64,000 bases of DNA from Amoebophrya sp. A120 (GCA_905178155.1 CAJINV010000011.1:2163503-2227502), one strand, 5' to 3'; shown: positions 5,101 through 54,688, numbered from the stretch's first letter. The notes: generated by a model not told the origin, from the sequence alone. Translations and numbers: made by a program.

Positions 5101-8100
5101 CAGCGGTTTCTGTGGCACCAAAACCTGTGCGAGGAGCGGCGGTTGCTGAATTTGGACGACTTGGGCAAAACCTACACGGTGCAAATGAAGGGGAAGCCGC
5201 AGATCAGCGGGGGAAGCAGGTATTTGGCGGATAAATTGGTGACGAAGGACCTCTACATCCCCCCCGGCGGCAGTGGGCAGCAGGGCTACTCCTGGCGGCT
5301 CGAGGCCGCGCAAAAGGCGGAAAACAAGGAGTGCACCTTTCAACCCAAAATTTCACAACGGTACGATAAAAGTATTCCGTGCAGTTTATTGATGTTGCGT
5401 GATCCGATACACTTATGGTACTTCTTTTCGACAGCTTCTCTCTGCATGAGTATATGAAAATGAAGCAGTAGTTGTAGTAGAGTGCGCCTGCCGCGCCCGC
5501 ACCGGAGAAAATAATCTTATCCGCTACAATTATCTTCTTCGATCCGACATTGTCAGCAGAAAAACCCGAACTATATGACTCACAGGTCCCGGTCTGTGGA
5601 GCGTGATTGGCGGATTCTGTATGAGGACGCTGCGAAGAGACGGGAGCGGAATAAGGAGCGGGAAAAACAGCAGGGCATGGACCAGCTGCAGGGGGCGACG
5701 TTTCACCCGAGAATATCCGAGTTTGCGAAGTCGCGCTCGGTATGCATTGCAAATATGTCTGGGTCTGGAAACTTGTGATGCTGGGCTGGGAACAGACTGA
5801 ATGCTCTGTAATGCACAGCCGAGCATGAGAAATAATTTGCGCGGCTTAGTGTTGCCTTTTTCGAATGATAAGCTGCGCTTTGCATGACAAGTAAAAGAGT
5901 CTCTTCTTGGACACGCATCACAAACTCGTCAGTCATGCCAGACAAGCATGACAAACCTGGCAATCTTCCAGACCCAGACACATTTGCATTTGATACTCGG
6001 GGGTGATCAACTCCTCTGGGGCGCTGGACGACTACCTGGCGCACCTGCAGTATCCCAAGCAAAAACGTCCCCGCCCCATAGTCAAGTTGGGAATCTAGCA
6101 ACACAAATCTCCAAGTTTTGGGAGCTGTGCATGACAAGTTTCCCTCTACTGCAGTGTCGTGCTGGTTGGCAAGGGAAGCCGCATGAGACAGCCACTCCTT
6201 CATCCTGTTTACAGCATTACAAATTCTAAAACGCGATTGGTAATACCTCGCATGCCGCTGCGCATTACAAATGTTCCTGTCATTGCACATTTGCATGACA
6301 ACTCTGGGGTGGGGACGTTTTTACTCAGGATATGCAGAAGAAGGACGAGAGGCTGCTGCTGACAAGACAAAAGTACGTGGACCGAATGGAACAAGTGCAG
6401 CGGGAGCTGTGTCCCTTCAAGCCAAATCTGATGCACGCCGCGGGGCACGTACCTAAGGTGGAGTCCGCGTCCTTGGACACCTTTAAACTGTACAACGAAC
6501 TGCGGCACGCCAGGGATGCAGAGGTGCAGGACAGAATTGGGGAGGAAAAAAACTACGCACGGGAACAGGCCCGGCTGGCCAGGAGCAGGAGTCGTACTTA
6601 CTCTGAATTAGCTTGATGCAGCTGTTCTTGCTGGTTTTTTGGTTGTAGTCACTAGCGATAGGATTTTAAAGCGCGAGATTTGATTTCCACATTCGACGAG
6701 ATAACAGACTCAGGAGACACGATCATGATTATCAATTTAAGACGAATGATCTGGGAAAGAAATCGATCAAACTTCCCGCAGCTGACGCCGCCAATTCGTC
6801 CGATGGTGGGAACAACAATACGGCGTCGAGGAGTCGATCGCAGTCCCAGCCGCCGTCCCAACCTCGCTCGCGCTCGCCCACAACGACGAACACCGGGGCT
6901 CCAAAAATGCTCTCCGAGAAAAAGAAGGATAATCAGCTGCAAAAATGTCTGGGTCTGGAAGATTGCCAGGTTTGTCATGCATATTTTGAATGACCCATGA
7001 TGTCTGTGATGCATGCCGTAGCATCACAGATTTTTAGAGGACTTTGTGATGCCTCTACCGCATGAGAAATGCCCTCTCCACGTAGCACACACTGGAGTCC
7101 TTTTGCTGGTCATGCAATACAAATTTTTTTAGAATCCAGAGACAGCATTACAAGTTTATAATCTTCCAGACCCAGACACTTTTACATTTGATAAAGGAGA
7201 TCTTGATGCAGAAGTTCGCCCACGACCAGGCTATCGACATTCCGAGCAAAACCGCGAAAGCCCACCCGAAACACACGCCGCTGACCAAGTGGGAACCGAG
7301 CCGGTGGAGGCCGATGAGCGGATCAAAAGGTGGTTCGAAGTCCCGTAGTTCCCCGGCGAGGGGCAGTCGCTCCGCTTCCCCGGACAATCTTCCGCGCGCA
7401 CGACGTTCCCTCACTGCGGTTAAGAAGCCGGAAGCGACGACGAAACGGGAGCCGTCGCACAAGCACGGATCCGTGTTGTTCAACCACGTCCCGATCAACT
7501 TCGACCCGACGCGGCGGTCCGTGCGGTCCGACGCACATCTATCTTCGAGCACCGGAAATGATACAAGTAGTGTCGAACAGGGAGCGGTGAGCAAACTGAT
7601 CCAGAATTTCTCGCGCGAAAACAAGCTTTTGTCATCAAACGCGGTGGAGAACTTCTCGTCGTCGGATAGAAGTCGCAGCAACAGTCCGAGTCCTGTTCCC
7701 GCACGACCTCCGTCTCGGAAAACAGCCCCGAATCTTCGCGAGACGAACAGCGGCTTGGCTTCCACTGCCGCGGGAACGAACTTTGGAAATTCCATGAATC
7801 AGACGGATTCCGGCGCTTCTGCCTCGCCGGTCATGTACCACCGGGGGGTTGCCATCCCGACCGCGACGTTTGTGCCGCGGAAAACGGCACCGATTGAGGA
7901 GGAAACACCAAAGAAGAGCCGCGTGACCAATCTGTACTATGCGGAGCCGGGAAGTGGTGATGAGGCCTTGAATGCGTTTTACAAAGGCGCTTCTTCTACA
8001 CAAGCATTACAGATGAAAACGAACAACAACCCCAGCGCCGGTGTTCCAAAGTTACCCTTGAACAGTACCGGCGCGAGTCGGCAGTGGGCGCAGGCGAGAC

Positions 8101-8543
8101 GGGAGAAAGAAGACGTGTGGGAGGAGCTCCTTGGCGCGAGCGAGTACAGTAACAGTGAAGATGTGATCTCGGACGTGTCGTCGGAAAAGCAGCAAGCCAT
8201 AAAACCTTCTACTTCTCTCCAGTTTAACAAGAAGAACAGCAATCACCAGGCTCGCGACGACGCGGAACAAGAGCGTCGATTGCAACCAAAGATTCTCTAT
8301 CAGCCGCGCAACCCGCAGGAGAAACACGAGTTGCAATCTGCGCAAGCGGCGGTGAGCTATGCGAAAGCGGTGGAGAATCTGGAGCGCATGACGAAACACA
8401 TCTCGGCACGCAACCAGTTTTTGGAAGCGTCTTTAGAAGCTACCGAGGTAGCGGAGCTTGATAGGAAGTTCGGCAGAAATAACAACTACGCGGGCGGCAG
8501 TACTACTAGCGGCTCAGTGGGTCCACGGTGGGACACCTCGTGA
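2163..8543 (+). CDS. Large multi-exon Ser-rich protein with about 8 (E)CTFxP(K/R)(I/L) repeats; several GT-AG introns plus 3 introners
   Basis: ORFs at 2133, 4226, 4759, 5575, 6332 and 7188 appear to be exons of one gene; introner junctions are in frame. Motifs DFTFQPK, NCSFSPRL, NCTFTPKI, ECTFQPDL, QPTFKPRV, ECTFQPKI, GATFHPRI, LCPFKPNL. Not all canonical intron boundaries were fixed. Confidence 0.7.
2880..3023 (+). repeat. Coding minisatellite, 8 x 18 bp (TCCAGCCGCAAAGAGCAG) encoding SSR(K/T/A)EQ
   Basis: Directly visible tandem array, 144 bp. Confidence 0.95.
5741..5995. mobile_element. Introner, TIR family A
   Basis: TAT..ATGTCTGGGTCTGGAA ... TTCCAGACCCAGACAC..GATA; DR CTCGG/CTCGG; removal gives KSRS-GVINSS. 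Confidence 0.93.
6051..6332. mobile_element. Introner, TIR family B
   Basis: TATCCCAAGCAAAAACGTCCCC ... GGGGACGTTTTTACTCAGGATA; DR TGCAG; removal gives AHLQ-KKDER. Confidence 0.93.
6930..7193. mobile_element. Introner, TIR family A
   Basis: Family A TIRs, left end TAATC variant; DR AAGGA; removal gives SEKKK-EILMQK. Confidence 0.9.
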
Positions 8544-12700: not shown

Positions 12701-15700
12701 GACGCATCCGGACAGCCACTTGCGACGCCGACGCCCATATCAAATGTAAAAAAAATGTCTGGGTCTGGAAGAGGAGAAGCTTGTCATGCACATTATCCAT
12801 GATCCATGATGTCTCTGATGTATGCAATAGCATCACAGATCTTTTGAGCGCCTATCGATGCGCGGCCTGCATGACAAATGCCCTCTCCGCGTAGCCAAAT
12901 TTGACTCCTCTTGCTGCTCATGCAATACAGATTTTTTTAGCATCCAAATGCAGCATCACAAATTTGGCTCTACCAGACCCAGACATTTTTGCAATGCATA
13001 ACCCAAGTCCGCGGCCATGCGCGCGACTTTCGCCAAGGCAGCTTCCGCGTCCGGAAATTTTGCGGCGGCCGCGCCGGGGACAAATGCTAATTTGATGAAC
13101 AAGAATAATTATCTCCACCCGAGCAGTAGTTCCACAGCAGTTCGGAGTACTTCTTCTTTCCTCGCACCGACTAGCAAAGAGGATCCGGAAGATGATGTTG
13201 AGATGGTAGACGCCACGACAAGCACCACTGGAATCATCGCAGCAGGAGTTGGAAGTGCCGCAAGTTCAAGTTCTATGGCGCAAAGGCACCAACTTCCGAA
13301 TAGCGCAATTCCACCGACGACACTGCAGATGAAAGCAACAAACTTATCGAACCAGCAGCAACCGCCGGGGACCATCTCGTCGTCGCAGCTGCCTCAGCTT
13401 CCCCCAGCTACGCGTGAACTGTCGTCGGGCACCAGTACGAGTTTGAAGCGGCCCACGCCGTCGGAAGTAGTAGATCTCAACTACGCCTCCAGCGCGATCG
13501 TCCCCTGCTCGGAAGAACAACCTGGGATGCAGTGGAGCAAGTCGGATCCCACGCACGACAAGTTGTTTGATCCGCGGAGCTTGATTGATCAATTCAAATT
13601 GAAGAACGCGCCGGTGGGCCTGCACAAAAATTCTAAACCGTTCTTGCAGAACAGCGAGACGGAGGACCAATCGGCCCGGGCGCGAAAGAAAGCGAAAGCG
13701 GCGGGCCTCAGCGCGAAGGACGTGAAGAAGCTCGAGGCGTCCCGCGCCAAAGCGGAGCTGTTTGGCAAGGCGACGCCGGGGCGGTCGACGAAGCTTGGCC
13801 ACATCCCGCCCATCGTGGAAGCGAACCAGGAATTGTCCAGTTCAGTGTCACCGCAAGCAACACGACCCGCGGGGGCTCTTGCGAAGGTTAGTGCTGCGCC
13901 GGTAAAGACGATGGTGGTCGTTCCTCCAGAGGTAGTTTCTGCACAGCCTGGCTTAGTTGTCGGCGGTGGAGGTTCCTCCTCGTCGTCATCAGCGAAACAA
14001 CCTGCATACAAAAACGAAAGCGCAGCAGTAGAACCGTCCAGGTCTGCGCCCCCGCCTGTACCGAAGAATAAACCGGACGAGAGACTGCTGCCTGAGGATG
14101 ACAACTTGCACTATGGTACGATTGATTCGCGTAAAAATTCGCCAGAGGTGGATAAAAACAGCGATAAGAGAAATGCAGCTACGACGACCGCGGCGGCCGA
14201 CACCATCGTGGCACCAGAAGTAGAGGCACATCAAGCGCATCGTGATCGTCGTGTAGGCGGAGGAAGGAATCAAGAAGTGGTAGTCCAACAAGAAGATGAT
14301 AATAAACCACTCACAACGAGGACCACTCCGGTCCTCGCCCTCGCGAAGTACTACGAGCCCGACCGGGACTACATCGCGAACCCGCGGTGGTACAGCCCCA
14401 CGGATCCGGTGGATGTCGCAATCGGCAAGATCCCACCCGGGAAAATCATGAGCTGGCGGTGCGAACAGTACGGGTACCCGATTCACTACCACATCTACCG
14501 CGATAAGATCGACGGCTCCTTGCGGGACTTCCACACCGGTCGGAAAGTCCACTTCATCGACAGTACCTCCGGGGAAAGGGTCCCGCTGAAAGACGCGCTC
14601 ATGAGGCCAACAGAGGACTTTGTTCGGAAGTACCTGGAGGGCCGCGGGGGAGATGAAGTTGCCGGCGTGCTGGAAAACGGAGCGGAAAGTTCTGGTAAGC
14701 GAGGCGTTGGTGACCACGAAGAAGACAATTTGTACCAGCGAAGTAGCAACACCCGGCAGAACATCGCGAAGGCGGCGAGCACGCGGCTGTTTTCGAACGA
14801 GACTACTGGAGGTTCTTTTGCTGTGCAGCACTTGTCGTTCAACAACGTAGAACCAGCACCAGCAGGGGAACATCAAGCTTCTGCTTTCGCAAAGTCCCCG
14901 CCACCGAAGAGGCCATTTCTTGCAGCTGCTAATATCGGCGGCAACGGATCCTCGACCATCTCTCAGGCTGGCCTGCCCATCCCGTCGGGCGCCGCGGGCC
15001 TGCCGGTCCCCGGGGGATCCTCGTGTTCCTTCCGGAACGGGTTGCCGGACACGAGTGGCTCCAGTCCCGATTTGCCGAGGGAGCCCAGTCACGGAACGAC
15101 CGTGGTGCATCTGCCGGCCGCGACCTCGAGTAGTCTCGTGCGGCCAGCGGGGATCGACATGACGCAGTCGTCTCCGCCCGAGAGGATGGTGGAGCCGGGC
15201 GGTGGGGCGAGTATGAGTAGCAACGGGGACTGTTTCCGAATTTTGCGGAAGCAGCCGGGCTTTAGCGGGGATCATGCGACGAGTCCTTCTCTAGCTGTGT
15301 TTAGTACTAACAATAAGTACGCAAGTGTTGAGACGAGTGGTGCGGTGAATGGTCCTCTTCCAATCGCAGGAGCTGCGACGGAGTCTAATGATACTAGCGG
15401 CAACCTCCACGCAGCGTCCTCGTCGAGTCTGGGTCGGCAACCTCCATCGGGAGGTGCGGAGCAAAGCAGAAGGGTTCCTCCGAGCGATTCGCTGGGCATC
15501 CTTTCGCGGCCAGGAGCGGCACTGCTTGGTGGAACCACGGCAAATTCCACCTCTGCTCTCGTGCCCATTGGAAGTACTATGAGAGAAGGAGATCCTAGCG
15601 CAGCGGTGGCTGGTGATGATCCACCAGGACCCGGGGCAGACCAAGGCAGTGCCGGCGCAGACCAGATAGTAGCGGCAGAACCGTTATCAGGGTCGATTGG

Positions 15701-18167
15701 CAGTCGAGAAATAAAGCAGCCGTCAGGAGGTGACGTGGAAATGAATCTTCGTGCAGCTTCTAGCAGTTCAACATCTGTGAACAATAATTTTTACACCGGA
15801 CTGCCCTCGCTGTCGCTTCCCAATGCTAATGGAAGTGGTGCAGGTGCGAGAGTTCTTCCCGGGCAGCTGCTGGCACCGCTAAGTGGCGGGTCGGTAGCCT
15901 CGTCCTCCTCCAAGCCGCCCCTCGCCCCGCCAAACACAGCCGATCGAATGCCCTCCTCCGCTCTGGACGAAGTGTTGCACGAGCGGCCGCGGCGGATGTC
16001 CTCACTGCAACCAGTGGTCGCCGGCAACAACACGTCCGGCGCCTCCAGCAGCAGTGCGCCACTGGTAGCCGCGCGGTCGGCCTCCTACTCGCCCACGAGC
16101 CGGCGGAACCGGACGGACGCGGACACGAACAAGGAGGGCACCGCCTTTGACGCCCACGCGTTCCAACGAGGCTCCTCCCCGCCGCGACGGGCGCACGGCG
16201 AGCAGAACCAGGACGACGGGGTGCCCAATCAGCAGCCCACGACGGTCAACGAAAGCACGGACTTACCGCGTTCCGCGCACCTGCAGCGGACCAACATCGA
16301 CCCCAACGACCCGAAGTATAAGGAAGCGTTCTTCGCCGGCGCTGTGTCAACCGGGGGCTGGGTGCCCGTCATCTACGAGGGCGCAGCGGCAAAGCTGCAG
16401 GGGGTACGGATTTGTATGTTCATTTCAACATTGTTATTTTAACCGACTGCTTAAGCGACCAATTTGAATTTCAATTTGGTGGAGTGAGATGAAGTTGTGT
16501 CCTGTTTTGCTACCATAAATAAGGAGGCTGCAGTATCTATTCTTTCTTCATCTTCCGCAAAAATCAACCTTCAAACTAACTGCAGGCTCCCGAGCAGAAG
16601 CAGATCCAGGGCCCCATCGTCGTTCGTCGACCTGGGTCTCGTGCCCTTCCGACCGAAGAGGAGGCAGGAGAGGGAGCGCAGAACAAACTGTTACCAAGCA
16701 GTGGGATTATCAAGACGGAAACAGCTACCTCCTCAACCGCGAATAACAGGGACAACAAGCGCGTGCGATTTTCCGAAATCTCCGACATTCGCGAGTTGGA
16801 CAGCCACGAACTTCCAGACTTTTCCATCGAGGGCGAGCCCCTGGTACTTGTGCACAATAACAGCAACGGTTGTCGTGACACCAACTTTTCGAACCTTTCC
16901 GCGATCCCGCACCGGCGGTCTTCGGCCGCTCCGGATCAACATGCAAATCCAACAGCGTACGGAAACTGCAACCCGGTACCTGGCCTACCGGTCGGGACGT
17001 ACTGGAAACAGAAGGAGGGTTATCGTAAGGAAAAATCCCCCCTCCCCATATCAAAAGGAAGTTTCTGATGCTGGATTTGCGTACACAAATCAGATCTGTC
17101 TTGCAGAAAGTGCTTGGCGGCCGCATTTTCTAAGCCTGTTTGGATATGCAGAAGGCTAGCAATTAGGCATGACAAACAGGTTTGCAGTAGTCAAAAGCGC
17201 ATGACAGACTGTCTGCGGAATGCGCCACATTGCTCCCATTACCGTATAGGCAAGACAGAGGGTATTTGTGGCCACAAATCAGCATCACAAATTTCCTTTT
17301 CGATATGGGGAGGTGGGATTTTTACTTTTGATAAGGGCAGAGACACCATCCACCGGTTTGTCGGGTCCAACGTCGGCGCGTCGGAGGACATCAACGGAAC
17401 GTACCCGGATAACGGGGACGTCTACCGGGACCGGATTTTCAACCCGAATTATCTCCCCCTGCCCTTCCGCGCGAGCTCGAAGAACGCGAGCACAAACTTC
17501 GCGCTAGTATCCGCCGGGCGGAAGATCAAGATACCCCGCGGCGCGGTGCGCGACCGGCTCTCCACGCAGATCCGACACGACCACCGGGAGAAGGTGCTGA
17601 AGAGCCGCCGAAATCGGCTGGACTCGGGCAGCGACAGCGAGCCTGCACAACAAGAACATCCGATGGACAGCAACAACCGGCGGCCGCGCATGAGTGACGT
17701 GCCCTGGATCCGCACGCCCCCGCATGATAAGGCCTACACCTGGGAGGAGGGCGACTGGCTCCAGACGCCGGAGGGAAAGAAGCCACCGGAAAAACCGGCT
17801 GACCAGGCGAAGTGGCTCGACAAACCGCCCAGGGCGGCGAGAAGGTACTTATGCTATGCAATTAATTGAATCGTCTTCGTCTTTTGTCGGCATCCATGAG
17901 GGTATGATTTCGATTTGCAACTTCATCGAGAGGAGATTCTGGTCGATTTACTTTCGTTTGCACTGTGTACTAAAATCCTTCCTGCGCGTACCACAGGCAC
18001 CTCGCGGAGGCAGACGAGCTCGATTTTGAGTACGAGTACTTCGTCACACTAGCGTACACGAAGCCGGGCGATCCACAGCCCGTGCCGCACGCGTCGGTTC
18101 TGGCGGATAGCTTCCAGAGCTGTATCGACGTGTCGTCGTCCCATGTGCACCATCAGCAGTCTTTTGC

Positions 18168-18198
<31 letters not shown>

Positions 18199-21100
18199 GC
18201 GCAAAACCAATCGGAGCGGCCGCCCCCGTTCGAAATGAATAACCAGCAGATTGTTCCCACGCCGCCAAGTATGGCGCCCTCGGACCCGAGAAACAACGCG
18301 ATGATTATGTCAGCGTACATATCCTGAGTAAAAACGTACCCACACCAGAGTCAGGATGGGGATTTTGCAACACAAACCTAGGAGTTTTTAGAGTCACGCA
18401 TGACAAATTTCAGTTCGTACTGTAGTGCAGATTAGCGTGGACAGCCGCATTACAAATCCATCTGCTTATCCTGTTTACAGCATTGCAAATTTTGGAACAC
18501 GATGGGAAATGCCTACCATGTGTATGCGCATCACAAATGTTCCTGTCATTGGAAATCAGCATTGCAACTCTGGGGTGGGGACGTTTTTACACAGGATAGT
18601 ACAGCGACCGGTCCGCCTCCGCTGCGGTCCTCAGCGGTAAGATCAGTCCGGTACGGAGTCTGGCGGACCGGGAGCGCGACGAAGCCGAGAAGGAGCAAAA
18701 TAACAGTCAACATCAAAACGCGAGTCAGGACCAGCAACAGCAAGATGAAAATCAGCAGTCCTCTAGAGGTACAGATCTCCACGACCAAAGCAGCAACATG
18801 CAGCAACGGAGTAGGAACGAGGACGAAAGCGCGGCTTTTCATTCGATCGTGGAAGACCGTTCTTCGTTCCTCCGGATCAGCGAGGGGGAGCACAGGCCGA
18901 AAATTTCTCCGCCGACCTTTGGCATCGCAGGCGTGACCGCCGCGGAACTCCGGGCAAAGGAAGTGTCCTTTGGTGGGGACCATCAGGGGGCCTTCGACCC
19001 GCACCCGGGGAACAATTTGAATGGGGTATTGGTTTAGTTTCTAAGTTGTACTTATCTCCTACGATGTGTTTCAGTAGATTCGAAGAATGGTCAATATTAC
19101 GAGTAGACGCACGAGGAAGAAATAGTGGCTGCATTTGTTCAGTAAGTCGCTGAAATAATAAATCTATCCCTGGAATCCCGTTTTTATTGTGTAATGGATT
19201 CTGTGTCGAATTCGTCATCTATCATGATGCTACTTCAAATCTTCAACAAATACAAAACAGCACACGCCACAGTTTGGCGCGCAGCATCCGACGCCGCAAT
19301 TTGGCGGTCTGGTTCCCCGCGGTGGCCTGTTTGACCGCGAACACGAGCATTCGCCCGGCCCCAGCTTCGTACCGTCCCCGCGTGGGGGCCGGCTGCCCCA
19401 CGTGACCTCGCCCGTGTTCGTGCCCAGTCCAAAGGGAGCGGACGGGGCGCGGGGACGGGACGCGGAAAATCGGGTAAGAAAGTTTTTTTACTTGTAGCGT
19501 GCTTATTGGGTTTAGGTTTTCTTGTTGTTACGTGATAAAGTGTAACAAGGTGAAACAACCTTCGCAATGTCAAAAAATCGCAAAAATATCTATCATGCCC
19601 TACAGGTTTTCACTCCTGAAGATCCGCGTGGTAGTTTCCCAGCACATCAGGCGCTGGATCCGGAAGCGCAGCGACGCCTTGACGCGATCCAGGATATTCT
19701 AGTGTCCAAGGGGCACGACGCAGAAGCCGCGCTGCCGCTGGCCAAGGAGCTGTTATCCGTGCTGAGATCGGAGGAAGAGGTCACGATTGAGAACCTGCAG
19801 GAAGCGGAGAGACGACTGCAGGAAGCGGCAGAGTACGATTCAAATAGATACAACTTTACAATGAGCTTACTGTTTGTGTAATGGATACTGTCTTCCTCTT
19901 CCGAGTTGTATGCCGAACAAAAAGAAAAATATGATCCAAAAAAAAAAGAAAGTCTATGAAGCACCAACATCCCGGTTGTACCACCTACAGCATTTTCACA
20001 GGCTTCGCAAGATCGCGGATTTTGCCTATCCGGTGATGACTTTGTCTGAGGAGCGAGACTTCCAAAAGCGCACGGAATCCAGGATTCGGGCCGCTGACTT
20101 GAATTACATGACCGAGGATCAGGTCGACATGCTGTTGTGGCAAATGTGCGTGCAGGAGGAAGTGCGCCGGTTGGACCGCCTCGGCGCGCAGCCCGGCGGG
20201 CCGGAGGGCGTGGCCGCAATGGCGGAGTACAATTAGATACACGCTGGCTAAAAGTTTTTCTTGATTTCGATATTTCTAAGATTTCACATCTGTTGCTTTC
20301 TCAGCGGCCAGTTTTGTCATACTTATGCAGGTGCTGCTTCTTGCTACATGAATTCCATGGCAAAATAAATGATTTTCAAACCACCAAACTCTGACGTGAC
20401 TCTCACAGCGCCCTGGACGAAATGATCTCCATGTCGTTCGACCACTTCCAGGAGGAGGACGGTGATAGTAATTCGTTGCAGCTCGGAAAGCAAAGGCCGG
20501 CGAAGACCCGCGAGCAGATGCTGAAAGAGGCCCAGAGTCTGCAGCAGTCCGCTGTTAACATCGAGAGGGAGACCGAGTTTTGGCGCAAGGGCAAGGCAGA
20601 CACGTCGAAGCACCGACTGCCGCCGTCGATTCTGGAGGACATGCGGAGGGTGGTGGCGGAAAACCTGGACACGCGGAATGTGGTATGCTATTTAAAAGCG
20701 TTCCCACCCCATAGTTGTCATGCAGATTTGCATCGACAGAAAAATCTGTAATGCACATCCGCAAGAGAGGAATTTGTAGTCGCGTTTTGGGATTTGTAAT
20801 GCTGTAAACAGGATGAGCAGGCGTCTTTGTGATGCGGCTGTCCTTACTAAACAGCACTACACTACAGATGGAAACTTGGCATGCAGAACTCCCAAAACTT
20901 GGAGATTTGTGTTGCAGATTTACCAACTTGACTACGGGGTGGGGATGTTTTTCCTCAGGATATGTGGACATGGAGGCGCTGGTCGGGGCGGAGTCCGCGG
21001 AGGGGGAATTTTCCCTGCACCTGCTCGAGCAGTTTTGCCTCGACCACCAGCAGCTCACTGCGGAGATGGACCACGCGCAAAAGGTGCGGGAGGAGGGAAT

Positions 21101-37584: not shown

Positions 37585-40500
37585 ATGTCGTATTTTTTCC
37601 CGCCCCCACCTGTGCCCCCCTACGCAGCAGCAGCTGCTATGGCAGCAGCCGCGCATGAACAGCACCAACAATCAATTCTAGCTTCCACTCATTTCTGGAA
37701 TAAGTCTAAAGATAGTAGTACAGGAGCAACCATTTCTAGCGAGACTTTAACTTCGGGTAGTTCTTCGCAATTTCATTCCGCACTAAAAGGGAACCCTTTT
37801 AACTTCCCATACAACAAGAATAGTAATCCGCTCTCCCCATGGACAACAACAGCCTCTCCGCACAAAGGCAAAGGCAAACAGAAATCGTTTCCAGGTTCGG
37901 GAAAAAAGTCTTCTAAAGAGGCGAGCTGTAATATTGTTGAACATCCATTCGACAAAAACAACTTTGGCTCCAGCTCTTACAACAATTTCGATTTCCCGCC
38001 GCCTCCTTTCGGAGGCACGTTATCATCTAGCGCCGGCGCAGCACGACAAGAGCTGCAGCAACACCAGTCCTATAATCAGTATAATCACGAAAGGAGCCTA
38101 CAATTTGTCAATAGTACCCAGCAGCTCTCTTCTTTCGACTCAGTTCGTAGTAGTGGGAGAAGTAGTAAAAGAAGCGCCGGCGCTGCACCCTCCGAAGTGG
38201 AGTTGGATAACAAGGGTTTACTACACGGGCGGAACTACCCGGGAACAAACAAGCGGAAAAACAAAATCAAAAATAAAGAGAAGCGAACGGGGAAAATAAA
38301 TAAGACTTCAAGCATTTTTCCGACGCTGGAGTCTACCTTTCTCGGACCACACGGAGGGAAGCAGCAGGAGCAGTTTGGTGGTGGAAAAGGAAATAGTAAA
38401 GGAAGTCACAGTACAGCAAATCCACTTTTGCCAGGAAATATTATTAACATAGACGCCAGCATCAATACTAGTAGCACCTACAACTTCGACGGCTGTGCAC
38501 AGCACAGTGCTGCAGCTGCTGCTGCACTACAGCACAGTACAGCAAGCAGACCTGGTGGGCATCTTCAGCCGGCGCATACGTCGTCGATCGTGGCGGCTGG
38601 TGTACAACTTCCGGATAGGTCTTCGGTGACGAACGTGAATCCGTATCAAAACATAGCCATTAGTGGAACAAGACCAGCAACGACATCAGCGCTTGTTCAA
38701 GATATTAGCGGCGGACCACCAGGTCATCTAGAAGGAGATTTTGCAGCTGGTGCGTCACAGCAGGACCACAATATTTTTACCACCGATACTGAGTATAATA
38801 TTGAAAATTGTGGTAACAACATCAACGATATCACGACGCCTCTGCACAACTCCGACGACGAAAATCAAAATCTCGAGGAATTATACCAAGACGAGCAGGA
38901 GCTGCACCGAAGTACTTCTAGCAGCCACGAAGGAGTAGAAGTAGACCACAAGGAGGACGACGTCGTGGTCATCGAGGAGACATCAAATAACTTGTGCGAG
39001 GACGAGGAAGAGGACTACGAGTACCACCACCATCACCATCAGGAAGAAGAAGAGCTGAAAATATTAAACTATAGTGCGAACAACATCAAAATCGAGAACA
39101 ACACCAGCGCGACCCGGAGAAGAACCACCGCCGGCACGTCTGCTTCCCAGCTGCGAGCAGACGACCAGGATACTATATTTAACTACGACCAGGAAGTGGA
39201 AGAACATCAAAGCGGAGAAGAAAACGCACCCATCCTGGGGGAAAACTTGATCCCCCAGTTCCGCGATCGAATCTCCTCCTCTTCGTCCGTTGAGGAAAAG
39301 ACCATCGTTTTCCCTAGCCCCTTCAGTCCCGCGCTGCCACCGGAAGCTTTGTGGAATCATCTCGACACCAGGATGGCCGACCCCACGGACCACTTCCCCG
39401 CGCGGGCCTTCCGCTGCGTCATATGAGAGTGCACAACACTCCTTCCCCCTTATTTGTATGGCATGAACAGCAACACAAGTGCTGGCAGAGATGCAGGCTC
39501 TGCATGAGAAATTCACCACTGACTCTAGCGCTGTTTCGGCTTCGGGAGCCTGTCATGCAAGCAGTGCCAAAATGCAATGGGTGGACTTGGCATTTTGCAT
39601 GACAAATAAGGAGGAGGGGGAGTTGTGCACTCTCATACGTCATCGAGTTTTTTGAGAAGGTGTGGGACGCAGACAAGGAAAAAGAGGGCGAGTGCGAGTT
39701 TTCGGTTGCGGTTGACATGATTAACAAGTACATTTTGACGGAGTGCGTCGACCTGCCATCCGAGTGGCAACTGCAGATCGAGAAGGTGCTGACGCTGCTG
39801 TTGCTTTCCCTGGACGTTTTGGACACGTTTCTGTTTGAGCGCATGGACGAGCAGGAACGCGGGCCGCCGGAGCTATCAACTGCAAAAGTGTCTGGGTCTG
39901 GAAGAGTGTAAACTTGTCATGCAGATTCGCCATGACAGCTGAGGTCTGGAATGCGGGACCTAGCATGACAGACTCTGTGAGGTCTCTGCCATGCCTATCT
40001 TGCATGAGAAACTTCCTCCCAACTTGGTCAAAAGTGGACAGCTTTTGGCAGTCATGCAACACAGATTTTTACATGCTTCAGATTTACCATGACAAGAAGT
40101 TGCCACCTTCCAGACCCAGACATTTTTACACTTGATAGGAGCTCACCCCCGTACGACTCGCGATGCTCAGGTAGATTTGGACGTTTTTGCATATCCTGAG
40201 TAAAAACGTACCCACACCAGAGTCAGGATGGGGATTTTGCAACACAAACCTAGGAGTTTTGTGAGTCACGCATGACAAGTTGCACTCTGCAGTGTAGTGC
40301 AGGTTAGCAAGTGCAGCCGCGTCACAGATTCATCTGCTCATCCTGTTCACAGCATCACAAATTCCAAAACGCGATTGGAAATGGTCCTCATGCGGATGCA
40401 CATTACAAGTCTTCCTGTCTTTGCAAATCCGCATGACAACTCTGGTGTGGATTTTTGTTGTGAAAAAATTCTGTTCATCTTCCAGGTCGGACCATATGAT

Positions 40501-43309
40501 CTTTTCTAAAACTGGTAACGCTAACGCATGATAGTGCTGCGATTGTTCTTCACTGGTGATTAAGATGAAGTCAGAATTCTACTGGTTGTCTACTTGTATT
40601 ACGAGAAGGTGATAATGACATAGATGATAACTGCCAACAGGTTTGCTGCGTTTTGGGTTGCCGCCGAGGAAAAAGGCGACGGGCAAGCGCACATCCGCGC
40701 TGCGCAGACGATTTGCAAGATTGCCGCCCTGTTTTTCGATGAGGACGTGGATTTCGTGAAGACCGTAACGGCCCGGTTTCAGCCGGGAGCGTTCGCCGAG
40801 TTCCAGCGCCGCCACGAGATGCAGAACTTGCCCCCGTTACTGCCCCCCCTCTCCACGAACGCCCCAGCCAATAACACGCCCGGCGGACAGCAGGGCGGGC
40901 AACATCAACCCCCCACGCCCGCGGGCGCGCAGACGATGGCGCACGCGCAACAGCAGCTGCAGCAGGTGGGTGCAGCAGCAGTTTCGATGCAGCTCCAACA
41001 ACAACAGCAGCAGCAGAATATGGATAAGGACCGGTCCCCCGTCACGCCCGGCACCACGACGAACGTGGCTGCGGGGAACATGATCGTTCCCCCTGGGATG
41101 ACACCCGGAGGCACGATGAACAGCAAGGGCGGACTCCCGGGTAACGCCGGCGCGAAGTTTCTGATGCCGATGCAGCCGGGGATGCCGATGCCACCGCAGG
41201 TGGTGGGTGGGTTCACGCCCACGGGCCCGCAAAGTGGGAAGAACTTGTTGCACTTTCCCGGACAGCAGCACCCGCCGGGGGTTGGCGCTCCCGGAGGACC
41301 TCCTGGAGGTTTCCCGCAGTACGGGCAGTTGCCGCCCCCCTACGGCACGCCGAACGCCGGAACGGGACCTCCCGGGTTTCCCCACCCGGGCACGCCGGGC
41401 GGATTCCCGGGCAACCCGGGGGGCCCCACGCCGCCAGGCGGATTGCCACCGCAGCTGCAGGTACAGCCACCACCCGGGACAAAGGGGCCCGCGCTGAAGC
41501 CCGGTGCTATGCCGCCCATGTTCCCGCCGGGGCTGGTGCCGCCCCCCGGAGTGCCGATGCCGGCCAACTACAGTCCGTTCAAGGGGAATCACTTGCAGCT
41601 GATGCAGCTGCAAAGCCCGCGGGGCGCCGGAACCATGCCGCCGGTATCTGGGCCGGGGGGACCACAGCAACCACAACTTCCTCCAGGGGTTTTAGTACAA
41701 CAACCTCCTCCAGGAGGACCCGGTGGACCACCGCAGCTTTTACCCATCGGAGCGGCAGGAGTTGCACTGGACCCCGCAGCTGCACAACAGATGGCCACCA
41801 CGACATCCTCCCCGAATGCAGGTGGAGCACCCGCAGCTTCGGCTGCACCAGATTCGCTGCCGTTGCCTGTCACTGAAAACAACGAGGATGAGATGGACGT
41901 TGACGATGATGACAAAATGGGCGTCGATAGTATTATTGCGAATAAAAAGTCTTCGTCAAAACGGCGGTCGAGCAAGCGCTCGTCCAAGCGGGACCGCAGC
42001 AAAAGCAGTTCTTCCTCCGAGCTGTCCGATGAAGCTTCCGGTGCCGCGCGGAAGAAGAATATTAAACAGCGCCGTGGGTCGTCCTCATCGGCTAGTAAGA
42101 ACAATTCCAGTGATAATAACGAGGAGGAAAACGTCGAAAATGAAGATAAAAAGAGCGGCAAAAAATCAACAAACATTGAAACCAGAAGTCGGCGCAGAAG
42201 GAGCAAAGAGAAAAAGACGACTCGAAAAAGCAAGAGCAGTAAACGAAGCAAGAGTAAAAACACCTCCCGAAGCGGGTCGAATAAATCGAAGAGCAGCAAC
42301 AGGTCGAAAAGCAGCAAAAGTAACAGCAGCAAGAGCGCCAGAGACCGCTCCAAGTCATCGAGTAGGAGCTCGCGAAGTCGAAGATCCAGCTCGCGCGGCT
42401 CTTCTAAGTCCTCGCGGTCCAAGTCTAAAAATTCCGACCGCTCTTCTGACAGCGATGAGGAGTCCAGTGAGGTGCAGGGACCGCTGTTGGAAACCCCGCT
42501 GGAACTGAAGCAAATGGCCAGCACGTTGCATTCCGGAACGAGCGCGGACGGGTTGCAGAGTGCTGGGCAGGGTGCCGGCGACCGAAACAACACCACGGAT
42601 CATCCGTTGGATGAAAACCTTTCCAAATCTTTGCAAAAAGCGAAGAACAAGCAGAAGCAGAAGAAGGACATGCTGACGGGGATTAAGCAATTAAACGTTT
42701 CCAACACGTTGTCCGACCTGCGGGACCGCCGGGCGGAGGAGCAGGTTCGCATCGTGAAGACCTACGCCAGTGAAGGCTGCCAGACCGAGCAGGCGCCGGA
42801 CTTGTATGATCGGAAGAACCTCGTGAAGATCATGACGGCCCGCGCGGACCGGTTCGTGTCGTCCCGGACAAAAGAGGAAATTGACGCCGACGAGGAAAAA
42901 GGAGTCTCTATCCCAAGTAAAAACGTCCCGACCCCATAGTTGTAATGCAAATCTGCACGCTGGAAATGCAAATGTTTCTCATGCGGAGCCCCATGAGAGG
43001 CGTTTTCTACCCTAGTGCTGATTTGAGATTTGTCATGCTCGAATCAGAATGACAAACTGGATCTGTGATGCTGCTGTACGAGCTAAACACGACTAAATTG
43101 CGAGCCCAAATTTGTCATGCGCAACAGCCAAAGCTTAGGGATTTGTGTAGCAGATTTCCCATCTTGACTCCGGGGTGCTAGGGACGTTTTTACACAGGAT
43201 AGTCTCTCACTGTCCCGACATTATGCCCGACTTCTCGTTTGATCAAGCCTCATCTCAGCCGGAGGTGACAAACAAAGCGAGCGGACTCTCCACGATCATG
43301 GAGGAGTGA
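37585..43309 (+). CDS. Hypothetical protein with low-complexity N-terminus, small helical core, Pro/Gly/Gln-rich region and Ser/Lys/Arg-rich region; 3 exonic introners plus GT-AG intron 40171-40640
   Basis: ORFs at 37501, 39660 and 40624 join in frame (RCV-IEFF, PPE-LTPV, AMLR-FAAFW, KGVS-HCPD...IMEE*). Confidence 0.7.
39422..39637. mobile_element. Introner, TIR family I (single copy here)
   Basis: TATGAGAGTGCACAAC ... GTTGTGCACTCTCATA; DR CGTCA; frame restored. Confidence 0.93.
39874..40137. mobile_element. Introner, TIR family A
   Basis: DR GGAGC; removal gives PPE-LTPVRL. Confidence 0.93.
40192..40460. mobile_element. Family B element nested in a canonical GT-AG intron, right TIR lost (end approximate)
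   Basis: First 69 nt identical to the copy at 18320; similarity stops after GACAACTCTGG near 40450; no GGATA end and no DR seen. Confidence 0.85.
42909..43201. mobile_element. Introner, TIR family B
   Basis: DR GTCTC; removal gives KGVS-HCPD. Confidence 0.93.
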
Positions 43310-45442: not shown

Positions 45443-48400
45443 ATGCGCAAACTCTCAAAGCGGTGCATCTTCTTGTCGGCGGCCATAAGTGCCGGCGGCA
45501 TGAGCATGATGCTGCACCAAGCCAGTGCGAGCACGGCGGCCGCGTTTGCAGCACCGGCTGCGGTGGCCATTTCCGAAAGTGGTCGTGGCTCCAGTGGTCA
45601 AGATCCTCGCGCCGGCCAGGGAACTACTGCGGAAGCAGGAGCGCATAATAATTCCCTGGTAGTTCCAGACACCGAATTCCAACTGGTTTCGTCACAAGAT
45701 CTGAAAGACTTATCTTCCGACAAGAAGGCACCGGGTGGGTTTCAGTTGATTTCCCCTCGAAAAACCAGAACGGTCAAGCTTCCCGGCAAGGAAGGACAGC
45801 AGCAGCAACCTCTACACGGAGGTGGGAAGAGTAATAAGCACAAAGGTTCTCGTGGTGAGAAAATCAATCTCGGCCCATCAGACCCAACCGAGGTACACCC
45901 GCAAGCGGAAGCGCTCTTGCGGATCTTAAACCAGAGTAGCAAAGTTGAAGAGGAACAACACCAAAGGCAGCGGTTTCTCGAGGATCAGATTTTGCCGAAA
46001 CTGCAGCAACGACTGCGGCCGATTCTGGAGCAAGATTCATCGCCTTCTTCCACGCCGAAGAAAGTTGGAAGTTTGGATAGCCTAGACGATGAGAGTGATG
46101 GAACAAAAATCGAGGAGATGATAATGTTGAAGTGGCAGAAAAACAAAAACGTCGGCAAGAAGATACTTGACATCACGAAGAGCCCTCCTACAACTACATC
46201 AACTTCCCACTACTACACCGCCGAGTTGAAAAAGCTCGGTGGCTTTGCACTGGGCCTCGCCTCGGACCGCGCGTTCGATTTGCAGATCTCGCTCCATTTC
46301 GATTTCGCGCCAGACACGCCGGAAATGTCGCGACAAGTGTCGAACAAGAAATCGTTCCTGTTCCCGAACGGCGCGCCGCGGATCAAGCTGTTACTGGCTC
46401 TCGAGAACAACTCTCCAGGCTATCGGATGAGTGCTGAGGATAAAGAAGAGCTCGCGCACTGGCGCACGCACGTCTTGAGTCACGCTGCCCGAACGCTGTT
46501 CGGCTCAGCAGGTTTTGAAGATACGGAGGTTGCGCGGCAGAAGAAGACGAACCAACATTTACCACTATTTGGGGCATGCCCCTCGGAGAACATCGGTAGC
46601 TCGGCGTACGGGGTGCTGGAGCAGCTGCACCAGGAAGGGATTTTGCCCTCCAACATGACTATGCATTGCAAATATGTCTGGGTCTGGAAGGTTGGAACTT
46701 GTGATGCTAACTTTGGACTCTAAAAAAATCTGTATTGCATGACCAGCAAGAGCAGGCGCCCGGTTTGTGTTACGCGGGGAGGGTATTTGTCATGCGGGAT
46801 AGGCATCAGGAAGGCCTCTAAAAATATGTGATGCTAGATCGTGCATTACAGACATCCTGAGTCATGCAAAATGGGCACGACAAACTAACCTGGCAACCTT
46901 CCAGACCCAGACACTTTTGCCCTCCAACATGACCACCGATTTGCTACCCGCAGTTAGCGCAGCAAGCTGCATTGGCAGTAGTTTTTCGCGTTCTTCGCCT
47001 GGCAAGAAAAGCTGCGCGTCAGACACAGCAGGTGAAGATGACCAGGAACTACAGAGCAAGGCCTTTCTGTACATTCGTTACGGCGATTCCGTTCGCATTC
47101 GTCTGACCGTGGCAGATTACCGACGGGCTGCTGAGACGGATTTCTTGAAGAATACATTGGCTAAGTTTAGCTTGAAAGGGGAAGCGGTGCTGTTTCGGAT
47201 CGTGCGACAGGTACACCTAACATAGAAACAAACCATGCAGAAGATAAAGATTCTTCCTTTGCAAAGTCGTGATATCAAGTATTCGTTCATTCTTGCTAGT
47301 AAAGGGTCGAGTTGGATGAAAGAGGGATTGTGTTCTAGTACTTCGCAATCATCGCAATTAAATCCCAATTCCCAGTTGAAATTCTGGGCCGAAGCCAGCG
47401 GCAAAGATTGGCTGCGCGCGGCGGACCACCTGGCGCTCGGACTGGCTCTTGCGTATTTGAAAGACGAAAGAACGGATTTTGGCTCCGCAACCCTGCAGGG
47501 ATTTTTCGAATTCTACACGACGATTCTTTCTTCGCACAGCGGCCGCCGCTGCTGGCCCCGACGTGGAGTCGTTGCTGTTCCGGCGTCCTCCTCTGGGGCA
47601 AGTCGAGAAGATCCTACGGTGGGAAGTACAACAGGAGAGAAGAATTTTTCCAGCCAGATAACACCACCAGCAGCACGTCAGGATTCCAGTGAAGATTGGA
47701 TTATGCTGGACGGTAAGGAGGACGTTGAGGGTCATGCCGCTGCCGAGTCCGCTGGTCATGTCCGCCTGGTAGCAGCTCCTGCGGATCACGGCGTATCCAG
47801 CTCTTTTGGTGGAAAAAGTTCCGCCTACTGTCCGTCTCCGTCCGTTAGTTCATCCCCCTACGTGTTCAACAACAAGAACCCCCACGAAATTACCCTGCCC
47901 AGGCACCAGCCGAGGACGCCAACGCAGCAACTTGTCAAGCCGTTTCTGGTGATGGCGAAAAGCATGCACGACATCGTGCCACCGACCCTTGTTGCCTCGG
48001 TGTTTAGTACTATGACCACTCCTGCGGCAGCTGCCACTGCTTGTTCAACAACATCTTCTGCCGGTCTAGTATCCTACGAAGGAAGTTGTACACGACATCA
48101 AGAACATCCGCAACAGACGAGTGTGACCACGAATGTCCTTGAAGACATTGTGGCAGCAGACTCGGCCTGCACGCCTGTGCCGGACATGTGTCGTGGAAAT
48201 AAGAAAGACGATGAAGAAGAAGAGCTCATCCTGTACTGCAAAACACAGGACAGCGAGTTTTACGTGAAGCCGAGTACCGCGAAGCAGAAAAAGTCGTCGA
48301 AGGGAAACAAAAAGATAGCACCAAACAAGCAGTCTTGCACCTCCTCGCCCGAGTTAAGTCCCGCCAGTTCTACTTCCTATTTCCCGCCAAGCAAGACAAC

Positions 48401-49782
48401 TTTGGCGCCGACTGGCGGTATTAGCGGACAGAAAAAGAACAAATTCCTCGGACGAGAGGAAGAAGAGACCACTAGCGGCTCTTGCTGCAAGCACCGAAAT
48501 GGCAGCCAACACCAGCCTACGCGGGCCAGCTCCCCGCCCGCGAGCGCGGCGCTGCTTTGCAACAACATCTGCCGTGGGGTCTTGCCTTGGGCGACGAGTG
48601 GTTCTGCGGGTCGCGACGGTCGTGGTGCCACGGATCATGCGGGCGGGAGACGCACGAAGGTCGAGACATCAAAATCCGCTATGATAGGCAGTCCCATCCT
48701 GGCAGGGAGTGTGAAGACAAGGGAAGAAGGACAAGCAAGCAACCAGGAGGTGAAAAAAGGTGACTCAGTCCTCTCAGGTCGTGCAGCGGTTCCCTTGCAG
48801 GAGACAATGCGATGGGAGCACGTTGGAGAACACCGGCCGCAGCAACCGCAGCGGCAGCAATGTGAGGATGACGAGTGCGATGGTTGGGAACAACTTGAAG
48901 TAGACGCAGACATGATGCAGTCATCTTCTACCCCCGCAAAGCAAGACCAAGACGATGAAAATGAAGCAGCACCAGCGCCAGCAGTCCCTGATGAAGACAA
49001 AAACAGGAAGTCAACATCTGCTGCGATGAAACTGCTTGAGCGCCTATTGTAAGGAAAAATCCCCCCTCCCCATACCTCCAAAGCGGGATACGTATGAAAA
49101 TTTGTGATGCTGATTCGAGGCCACAAATCGTCTCTGTATTGCCAGAAGGCAAATCCCAAGACCTGGCCGCGTTCTGCAGGCAATTGGTGATGCTGTAGGA
49201 CCTACGGAAAGAGGATGTGCCTGCCTTGCTAGGCGCCTACACCAAAACGCCCCTACTCCGGCTTTGCATCTGTTTGCAGTCCTCTACTGCAAGACGAATC
49301 CGATTTGGGTACACAAGTCTCGCATCAGAGATTTCCATTTCGATGTGGGGAGGGGGGATTTTTCCTTTTGATAGTCCCTGCAACCCGCGATGCAGATCCA
49401 ACTCCTCGATGACTTCGAGTACGCCGCCCGCTTGCTGTATGGGAGTGTCAGAATTGAAATCGTCAAAGTTGAAACGATTTGTCATGCATAAAATGCAGCC
49501 CACAAAGTGCTTGTCTTGCAGAGTAGGCAAGTGAGGCAGATTGTAAGCCTGTTGAGGGGTAGCATCTGAGCTGCTAAAATAGCATGACAGAAGGCGTCTT
49601 CCTTACCCAAACAGCATGACAAACTGGATTTCGGCTCTACCCAAATTTGTCATGCGCCACTTAGAAACTGGGTTGCAACTGGTATCCATTTTATGCATGA
49701 CAAACCATTATTTCAACTTTGACGATTGCGATCCTGACGCTTCCATATGCTGCGAAATCTGACCGCGTCGGAGAAGAAATAG
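45443..49782 (+). CDS. Hypothetical protein, possibly a degenerate TRF4/Cid1-like nucleotidyltransferase; 3 introners plus GT-AG intron starting at 47211
   Basis: LGGFALGLASDRAFDLQ resembles hG[GS]x9-13DhD; FRIVRQ-LKFWA...LALAYLK...LQGFFEFY resembles the poly(A) polymerase central domain. By-eye similarity only; the gene is more certain than the product call. Confidence 0.5.
46660..46928. mobile_element. Introner, TIR family A, right terminus replaced by exon sequence (19-bp DR)
   Basis: TTTTGCCCTCCAACATGAC occurs at 46641-46659 and 46915-46933; removal gives PSNMT-TDLLP. Confidence 0.88.
49045..49373. mobile_element. Introner, TIR family C
   Basis: DR GCGCC/GTCCC (3 of 5 match); removal gives LLER-LQPAMQ. 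Confidence 0.88.
49438..49747. mobile_element. Introner, TIR family D
   Basis: DR TGCTG; removal gives ARLL-RNLTASEKK*. Confidence 0.93.
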
Positions 49783-53415: not shown

Positions 53416-53695
53416 TAGAAAGATTGATAAAGGGGCGGGAGCGAATAATTGGAGCGGTTGTTTGCGTCGAGATAAGTATAAATATCACATTCGTTTTGAG
53501 AGAATATTTTCTTCTTCACCGCAAAGTGGCACGCATCGACTGACATCAAAGGGGAAAGGAAGTTTCGTAATCCCCTAGAGCGAGGTGGAATTTTTTTTTT
53601 TAAGCTGTAGCGATTCTTCGGTCGCCCTCCTCGCGGGAACACTTCTTACCTTTCGACGAAGTTGTAGTTTACGCGCTCAGCACGTAGAAACTACA

Positions 53696-54688
53696 ATGGC
53701 GGACACGACGCTAGTGACCCCTGCTCCAACCGTCGTCGCCATCGTTGGTGCCTCCGGCGGTGTCGGCTGCAAGGTGGTGGAGTGTGCGCTCGCGCAGGGC
53801 TTTGTTGTGAAGGTGCTGGTGCGCAACGCCGAGAAACTGGCGAAGAAGATCGGGCAGGAGAACGTCGACAAGCTCGACAAAATCGTCCTGGGCAGTGTGG
53901 ACGACGAGGCCGCGCTCAAGCAGCTGCTCGAAAACGCGTCCGTGGTGGTCTCCTGCCTCGGCATATCAAATGTAAAAATGTCTGGGTCTGGAAGGTTGCA
54001 ACTTGTGATGCTGTCTTTGAAAGGTAAAAAAATCTGTATTGCATGACCAGCAAGAGGAGTTCAGTTTGTGCTACGCGGAGTGCGCGTTTCTCATGCGGAA
54101 TACGCATCAGAAGGCCCTTTAAAAGTCTGTGATGCTCGGCCAGGCATTACAGGCATCATGGGTTATGCAAAATTTGCATGACAAACCTGGCAATCTTCCA
54201 GACCCAGACATTTTTACATTTGATACGGCACCCCCCCGAAAGAAAAGCCGATCGTGGCGGCCGGTACGGCGAAGATCCTGAAGCAGATGGAAGAATGTAG
54301 CGTGAAAGACCTGGTGATGATTTCGTCTATTTGCGTCGGAGATTCGCTGCCGCAGGGGAAGAAGGTCGCGTGCTGCTTCGCGAACTGCATCCGACCACTG
54401 ATTCTGTCCAAGGTGTTCGCAGACCTCGAAATCGCGGAGAAAATGTGCTTCGAACAGCAGGGAAAACTCTCCATCGTCATCGTGCGGCCGCCGCACTTGA
54501 CGGACAAACCGGGCACCGGGGGTTACCAGTGGACGGACGCGGCAGATTTTAACCCGGGGGCGCCGGCGGCGATTTCGCGGAGCGACGTGGCGCTGGCGAT
54601 GGTGGATCTGTGCAGGGGGGATAGCAAGTTTAAGGAGCTCGCGGGCACGGCGCCGAGCCTGTTTCCGGCGAAGAAGATGAAGGCGTGA
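53696..54688 (+). CDS. NAD(P)-binding Rossmann-fold protein, flavin reductase/biliverdin reductase B-like atypical SDR; 1 introner
   Basis: VAIVGASGGVG, V.VLVRN..KL, VVSCLG, VMISS, IVRPPHLTD.P.TG and ISRSDVA are typical motifs of this family. Confidence 0.85.
53964..54225. mobile_element. Introner, TIR family A
   Basis: Perfect 30-bp TIR TATCAAATGTAAAAATGTCTGGGTCTGGAA; DR CGGCA; removal gives SCLG-TPPKEKP. Confidence 0.96.

Follow-up and report, generated by a model that had tools for sequence, protein, structure and literature searches.

Exonic inverted-repeat introners of Amoebophrya sp. A120: both orientations, exact protein restoration and a possible spliceosomal route of removal

How can genes that are interrupted in their exons by many inverted-repeat elements, lying in either orientation, still correspond to uninterrupted proteins? 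This question is raised by a stretch of 64,000 nucleotides (nt) of Amoebophrya sp. A120 DNA (hereafter the window; positions are those of the whole stretch), where self-comparison, end scans and manual curation delimit 36 elements of 160-390 nt with terminal inverted repeats (TIRs), TAT…ATA ends and a 5-nt target-site duplication (TSD). As judged from their sequences, these are the introner elements of Amoebophrya A120, a system already known since 2021. More than 60% of Amoebophrya introns lack GT-AG, and their removal is an open question in the text of PMC7789003. The reading preferred here, with a probability of roughly 0.48, is that a modified U2-type spliceosome removes the elements, guided by their paired ends and using a relaxed N/UAU donor (the slash marks the cut). 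Stem-guided removal at the RNA level as such, whatever the machinery, is very probable.

Orientation of the elements and restoration of the host proteins

All but one of the 36 elements lie in + strand exons, the remaining one being located inside an apparent GT-AG intron. Their TIR arms are ~25-30 nt long and pair over ~25 nt, 733 of 873 aligned positions in the window being Watson-Crick, and position counts over both arms of 34 copies return a TAT start, seven variable bases and an A run, that is, the published end of A120 introners. An exact 5-nt TSD borders 27 of the 35 exonic copies, in agreement with the 3-5 nt repeats given in the text of PMC7789003, whose supplement legend shows a 5-bp example. 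As in those introners, the elements form repeated families with non-GT-AG ends: a GT-AG register is absent in 34 of 34 elements, with one possible GC-AG, at 31133. Prediction gives an end-to-end stem of ~20 of 25 pairs in either sense (29 same-sense copies, 31 opposite-sense ones), the stems of 29511 and 36061 being predicted with 10-nt flanks and not with 30-nt flanks. The initial annotation had regarded stem and ends as orientation-invariant; this stands for the predicted stem, whereas the ends vary, the exonic set of 35 including 4 elements with a deviating base at 5' position 3 and 4 with one at the 3' terminal position.

The presence of both orientations within same-strand genes, which the initial annotation had pointed out, is correct and apparently unreported. 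Interiors were aligned in both senses after removing 45 nt from each end, and all five contrasts appear as opposite-sense matches scoring 67-222, compared with a maximum of 24 among 300 shuffled scores. In family B, copies 6051, 18320 and 24211 share one sense (128-195) and each is opposite to 20684 (119-187 reverse vs 17-19 forward). Likewise, 31133 is opposite to 35111 in family E (159 vs 17), and 25639 to both 32671 (67 vs 22) and 49438 (186 vs 28) in family D. In family A, 12738 and 32181 are opposite to 46660 and 53964 (126-184), and 34414 and 39874 to 25327 and 28712 (149-222). Family C is ambiguous, 30180 and 31808 being opposite in one comparison and same-sense in another, because its interior is partly palindromic. 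The host genes are indeed all on the + strand: removal of each element with 5 nt leaves a + strand open reading frame (ORF) at all 34 exonic elements listed at the time, all 13 coding stretches are assigned to + by a strand model tested leave-one-out, and three deposited proteins map to +.

These three proteins (P0001, P0003 and P0004), named Amoebophrya sp. A120 by their source, are 100% identical to the queried exons, and virtual removal of each element together with 5 nt yields the deposited sequence at 24 of 24 elements. This comprises 16/16 elements and 1492/1492 residues in the main block of P0001, 3/3 elements in P0003, and 5/5 elements and 571/571 residues in P0004; five families are present in both orientations among the 24. 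Since the A120 gene models were built from transcript and protein alignments (PMC7789003), the match constitutes indirect RNA evidence. Independently of annotation, the paralog P0002 (77%) has no indel at 13 of the 15 junctions examined. Moreover, 14 copies join into 1512 codons at 27488-36084, where 96 of 4,782,969 frame combinations are open, the uniform 5-nt rule among them, the ORF ends of this join having been set under the 5-nt rule itself. Homologues lead to the same result in the exonuclease-like gene, as there is no indel at 24873 in the 149 of 149 homologues that aligned (of 150) or at the reversed copy 25327 in 72 of 91 aligned homologues. A homologue profile prefers the 5-nt rule at both elements (115.2 bits vs 99.7-111.2), while at 25639 it does not separate the removal lengths (113-117 bits).

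Polarity and level of removal

Relatives of the window elements are abundant in a related genome. One pattern scan of metagenome contigs gave 144 stretches, of which 142 loci (L001-L142) were analysed, all listed rows coming from one assembly, with 278 unique elements, 213 of them bordered by an exact 5-nt TSD. All 35 window elements tested have relatives there (up to 95.6% identical), and none of the window exons does. Elements occur in 122 loci, 75 of which were assigned a strand, providing 221 copies with 60-nt flanks; the first strand caller was replaced because it was either too noisy (11/38 loci inconsistent) or too strict (21/78 loci). Among the 112 copies with both flanks independently framed, 96 need 2 mod 3 nt between flanks. 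Element orientation in this genome, relative to the window references, is unbiased: the strict set (96 copies, 13 without orientation call) has 42 vs 41 and the broad set (178 copies, 20 without call) 72 vs 86 (p 0.30). The frame is kept in 42/52 same-sense and 41/46 opposite-sense copies.

Several further observations concern these loci. Insertions of the broad set are distributed unevenly over the three phases (84, 53, 41; p 0.0002). Among repeat mismatches that are synonymous, positions 1-2 (17/137) are affected more often than 3-5 (8/178; p 0.012), a hint that matching is required close to the junction. Two family-A copies with exact repeats, L041:3862-4492 and L061:6014-6985, are 631 and 972 nt long and possibly represent nested or deletion derivatives of an autonomous element. 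No autonomous transposase partner was seen: these longest paired copies hold no ORF above 86 amino acids (aa), and one pattern gave 0 matches in viral contigs.

Regarding the position of the cut, it appears to be polarised to the transcript, with the upstream repeat kept. The four non-synonymous TSD mismatches of the window, none of which belongs to an opposite-orientation pair within one family, all follow the upstream copy in the deposited proteins, two of them requiring no fewer than 4 nt of that copy; the paralog shares the upstream-copy residue at 32671 and 36376. All 131 copies of the window and the strict set have an intact 5' TA, whereas changes are found at the 3' terminal base in 7 copies and at 5' position 3 in 9, against 1 at the 3' partner of the latter. 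The interaction has p 0.0004 pooled and 0.048 in the 96 independent copies of the strict set; the pattern was first spotted in the window. Of the strand-symmetric removal proposed initially, the exact removal regardless of orientation (24/24) is retained, but the process is not fully symmetric: which TSD copy is kept and which end changes are tolerated depend on the direction of the transcript and not on that of the element.

Precise excision of the element with one repeat from DNA would produce element-free genes in the expressing stage. Ciliate internal eliminated sequences (IESs) and the TBE transposons of Oxytricha reportedly undergo such excision and leave one short direct repeat copy. 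A TIR element with a direct repeat, one copy of which is left, is the geometry that this process predicts; orientation would be irrelevant to it, and G-U and A-C are equally common in the stem. Nevertheless, contigs of sequencing run X1 span 33997-34240, 36061-36221 and 36376-36694 whole and without differences, with a depth over the spanned elements of 23.9 and 26.5 vs 23.4-29.3 in unique flanks. The kind of run X1 is unrecorded; its coverage is flat (25-36x) over non-coding DNA and it is possibly the source of the assembly itself, and its contigs drop rare variants, so that they attest the uncut form but a rare cut form is not thereby absent. Furthermore, the related genome keeps its 278 copies in DNA, and the retained repeat follows the transcript in 4/4 cases. 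Trophont nuclei give rise to spores, and excision from DNA would therefore be inherited, which also counts against it. The IES-like excision that the initial annotation had offered as an alternative consequently lacks support and is very improbable.

Even less credit is given to an explanation without any splicing, in which the hairpin between the repeats would be bypassed by RNA polymerase or by the ribosome, and some of the published junction reads would stem from jumps of reverse transcriptase. Template switching by reverse transcriptase is known to arise at hairpins with direct repeats on both sides, one complete in-frame codon is always contained in a 5-nt repeat, and third codon positions carry an excess of TSD mismatches (25/315 vs 16/575). 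However, mismatches at codon positions 1-2 are equally frequent inside and outside the full codon (9/356 vs 7/219, p 0.61), a hop at 36376 would read the downstream bases, yet the paralog keeps the upstream residue, and one mRNA would need 16 skips of 160-390 nt each. Ribosome hopping has no support.

Candidate machineries

The initial annotation had taken the two orientations as speaking against directional spliceosomal signals, an inference that is over-strong. Within TIR arms of ~25-30 nt, any donor, branch or pyrimidine signal would be presented in both orientations, so that orientation alone cannot exclude the spliceosome, and the TIR introners of Polarella and Aureococcus are spliceosomal introns in either orientation, with a bias (10.1101/2020.10.14.339549). 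Its proposal of structure-guided RNA splicing agrees with the lack of GT/AG enrichment in any register, although both orientations provide no argument against the spliceosome.

In the preferred spliceosomal route, both arms would present the same end and either orientation would offer the relaxed donor N/UAU, cut one base before TAT and equivalent to +2 to +4 of the GUAY donors of this organism. The stem would then draw the far end in, and the 3' cut would be fixed 4 (or 5) nt beyond the stem end with no AG, leaving the upstream target repeat in the mRNA; the near-invariant A three bases inside the 3' end, kept in 130/131 copies, may serve as the branch point. For A120, the text of PMC7789003 describes RNA-seq junctions for such introns and a nearly complete spliceosome in which U1 small nuclear RNA (snRNA) was not found. 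As for the donors, GTAY begins 16/36 predicted canonical introns in the loci vs 60/369 internal GT, and GTAC or GTAT opens each of the three canonical introns whose borders the deposited proteins fix. Moreover, in Table S4 of PMC7789003, T is second in 9/9 top A120 motifs, and 9/9 top A25 motifs start TT. Spliceosomal removal of TIR introns without GT-AG has also been reported in Fritillaria (PMC11282704), which counts in favour of this route.

A considerable number of points weigh against it. The donor set is noisy (36 kept of 279 predicted introns), the registers of Table S4 may reflect aligner tie-breaking within the repeat, and G is not enriched before TAT (63/178, p 0.86). At repeat positions 1-4 in the loci, codon frequency favours the upstream copy in only 21 cases vs 10 (p 0.07), and the broad set, in which 2/178 copies break the 5' TA, shows a weaker polarity of the ends (p 0.10). 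There is no co-option of GT/AG from the TSD, GT and AG standing at background in fitting registers (213 copies), nor any +1/-1 base coupling (213 copies, p 0.50), unlike in spliceosomal TIR introners, which also show the orientation bias that is absent here. The stem would pair the would-be donor with the would-be branch region, which a spliceosome would have to unwind, and it could be the transposase that requires the TAT ends, their likeness to a donor then being fortuitous. In the transcript sense, the stem shows no asymmetry between G-U and A-C (window 40 vs 31, loci 157 vs 175), and selection on the stem in the RNA strand therefore lacks support. Finally, no RNA junction, lariat or excised RNA was seen in raw RNA runs X9 and X10, which place 2 reads each on the window; reads of X3, whose identity as RNA is a guess, fall mostly over repeats, and X3 has no entry among the joints listed, which are repeat-derived ones of X1.

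Part of this evidence favours a separate, non-spliceosomal machinery, either a structure-specific endonuclease with an RNA ligase or a second system of the kind proposed for Euglena, which would recognise the terminal stem and the end motif, cut with a stagger and join the exons; this had been the main idea of the initial annotation. The target site is essentially unselective (213 copies with neither GT/AG co-option nor +1/-1 coupling), neither orientation is favoured, and the stem prediction holds for both senses. Non-conventional introns with paired ends make up 71.8% of the introns of Euglena, for which distinct factors are suggested by the authors (PMC12501133), and their excised RNAs are circular (PMC11282704). 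On the other hand, the element 5' end matches the donor of the organism at +2 to +4 in the likely register, the motifs published for two strains with different repeats both have T second, and the reported absence of U1 (PMC7789003) suggests that donor reading by the spliceosome itself has changed. In addition, copies 46660, 34721, 36376 and 29890, with decayed 3' ends, are still absent from the deposited proteins, and the terminal pair is therefore not needed. A separate machinery is thus only somewhat less probable than the spliceosomal route. Its fuller version, a dedicated RNA system apart from the spliceosome that reads paired ends, ignores the target and ligates with a fixed stagger deleting exactly one 5-base repeat, has nearly the same probability; if true, such a system would silence any insertion, in any orientation or site, at the protein level, as a general RNA-level antidote to a DNA transposon.

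Features of the window and comparison with known systems

The features are collected in Table 1. The element at 36061-36221 (161 nt) is an addition missed by self-BLAST, whereas candidates 50143-50365 (repeat 1/5, non-coding) and 19909-20272 (score 9, no repeat) were dropped; Rfam has no match in the window.

Table 1. Elements and host genes of the window. For elements, the strand sign gives the orientation relative to the family reference copy.
Feature	Position	Strand	Remarks
TIR element A3	5741..5995	+	exact 5-nt TSD, exonic
TIR element B1	6051..6332	+	exact TSD, exonic
TIR element A1	6930..7193	+	exact TSD; 5' end deviates at position 3
TIR element A1	12738..13000	+	TSD 4/5 (synonymous)
TIR element C	17021..17333	.	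orientation weakly called; TSD 4/5 (synonymous)
TIR element B1, reference copy	18320..18598	+	exact TSD
TIR element B1, reversed	20684..20962	-	exact TSD
Host gene of deposited protein P0004 (767 aa, DEDDh-exonuclease-like)	22758..26743	+	5 elements, 2 GT-AG introns
TIR element A3, reference copy	23663..23906	+	exact TSD, absent from P0004
TIR element B1	24211..24490	+	exact TSD, absent from P0004
TIR element A2	24873..25138	+	splits conserved HNxxFD-type exonuclease motif, P0004 gene
TIR element A2, reversed	25327..25590	-	splits HxAxxD-type exonuclease motif, P0004 gene
TIR element D, reversed	25639..25944	-	exact TSD, absent from P0004
Host gene of deposited protein P0001 (1565 aa)	27527..36772	+	16 elements; paralog P0002, 77% identity
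TIR element A2, reversed	28712..28980	-	TAC start
TIR element B2, reference copy	29511..29817	+	TSD 4/5; P0001 has upstream copy
TIR element A3, reversed	29890..30141	-	TAC start, ATC end
TIR element C	30180..30501	.	exact TSD
TIR element A3, reversed	30570..30845	-	exact TSD
TIR element E, reference copy	31133..31427	+	exact TSD
TIR element C	31808..32118	.	exact TSD
TIR element A1, reference copy	32181..32442	+	TAC start
TIR element D	32671..32981	+	TSD 4/5; P0001 and paralog P0002 carry upstream-copy residue
TIR element, family unassigned	33997..34240	.	spanned whole by run X1 contig
TIR element A2	34414..34675	+	TSD 4/5 (synonymous)
TIR element B2	34721..34997	+	3' end decayed to ACG; TSD 4/5
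TIR element E, reversed	35111..35498	-	exact TSD
TIR element F	35678..35889	.	exact TSD
Short TIR element (161 nt)	36061..36221	.	exact TSD
TIR element B2	36376..36694	+	ATC end; TSD 3/5; P0001 and P0002 have upstream-copy residue, at least 4 nt kept
TIR element G	39422..39637	.	exact TSD
TIR element A2, reference copy	39874..40137	+	exact TSD
B1 element in apparent GT-AG intron 40171-40485 (read from sequence)	40192..40450	+	right arm and TSD lost
TIR element B2, reversed	42909..43201	-	exact TSD
Host gene of deposited protein P0003 (1083 aa)	45443..49782	+	3 elements, 1 GT-AG intron
TIR element A1, reversed	46660..46928	-	last 8 nt are a copy of upstream flank; TSD register kept; absent from P0003
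TIR element C, reference copy	49045..49373	.	TSD 3/5; P0003 has upstream copy
TIR element D, reference copy	49438..49747	+	exact TSD, absent from P0003
TIR element A1, reversed	53964..54225	-	splits NAD(P)H-binding domain gene 53696-54688

Some side observations concern the elements themselves. The internal motif GCATBASARA, which may be a transposase or splicing-factor site, is found 91 times in 9.7 kb of elements vs 2 in 54 kb outside and is laid out mirror-wise along the element. Exonic location is in excess, ~64% of the element-free window being coding according to rough gene models (p 2.5e-6), which can be read either as insertion preference or as faster decay outside exons. The sole element in an apparent canonical intron lacks both the right arm and the target repeat, which would be expected if selection maintained the ends only in exons. 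At 46640-46933, a natural end mutant, replacement of the last 8 nt of the right arm by the upstream-flank copy forms a 19-nt direct repeat, probably through template switching between short homologies. Concerning the genes, the P0004 gene encodes an N-terminal hydrophobic leader and, beyond one 49% homologue, its nearest relatives are Pfam RNase_T proteins. Elsewhere, positions 172-669 cover the 3' end of a gene for an FtsH-type M41 peptidase (Pfam PF01434), two non-coding blocks with 68% identity and the same orientation (52967-53406 and 54756-55240) flank the NAD(P)H-binding gene, and GC-rich, 72%-identical repeat units, which are not TIR elements, alternate with AT-richer spacers (60530-60864 and 61402-61749).

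With respect to the A120 introners of PMC7789003, the strain is the same, and the published features comprise the TAT start, seven variable bases and A run, direct repeats overlapping the borders, non-GT-AG ends, a length of ~240-260 nt and co-oriented genes; the window elements display no difference in kind. In the text covered of that paper, no mention was found of how elements are oriented with respect to the gene, of a repeat of strictly 5 nt, of upstream-repeat retention or of the end asymmetry along the transcript, while its figures 3, 4 and S19-S25 may show orientation or cut position; the word "strand" is absent from the main text, and "orientation" is used only of genes (4 times in the main text, 3 in the supplement). 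Element orientation, repeat retention and splicing chemistry were likewise not found in the Amoebophrya literature covered, including PMC12130899 and PMC9860276, a coverage that comprises neither figures nor subscription papers. The insertion-silencing rule, if true, would explain how the elements fill 17% of the genome (PMC7789003). Either answer on the machinery matters, since it implies either a spliceosome that can dispense with both G+1 and AG or, outside euglenids, a second chemistry of nuclear splicing. Useful copies in this respect are the opposite-orientation pair of one family in one gene (24873 vs 25327), the natural end mutants that are apparently still removed, and the eight copies with mismatched repeats (12738, 17021, 29511, 32671, 34414, 34721, 36376 and 49045), which can fix the cut position.

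Among other known systems, ciliate IESs and TBE transposons are also said to leave one short direct repeat, but reportedly act on DNA and in a separate somatic nucleus, whereas the window elements stay in the DNA examined, where only the element-containing form is present in the contigs of one run, which drop rare variants. Huff et al. (2016) is said to be a further source on TIR introners of the type found in Polarella and Aureococcus. Those of Polarella glacialis and Aureococcus anophagefferens are also TIR DNA transposons with TSDs that act as introns either way and leave the mRNA unchanged (10.1101/2020.10.14.339549). In the classes described there, GT/GC/GA-AG sites are carried or recruited from the TSD and orientation is biased; the window elements share the occurrence of introns in either orientation and exhibit neither feature, GT and AG being as frequent as the ends and base composition give. 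Such indifference to the target sequence is the unusual point here.

Euglenid non-conventional introns likewise lack GT-AG and have paired ends, slidable direct repeats and a suspected origin from miniature inverted-repeat transposable elements, and they are the majority intron class (PMC12501133, PMC11282704). The predicted stem of the window elements similarly places base-paired ends next to both cuts. By contrast, euglenid introns have a CAG/CTG motif inside the ends, from which the window end consensus differs, and circular products are reported for them (PMC11282704), whereas clear repeat families and a fixed 5-nt TSD distinguish the elements described here. Lastly, the introns of Fritillaria borealis combine TIRs and TSDs with the lack of GT-AG, as in the window, and are removed by an adapted U2 spliceosome; their preferred ends are AG-AC and AG-AT (PMC11282704), while the 3' end of the window elements is arbitrary target sequence.

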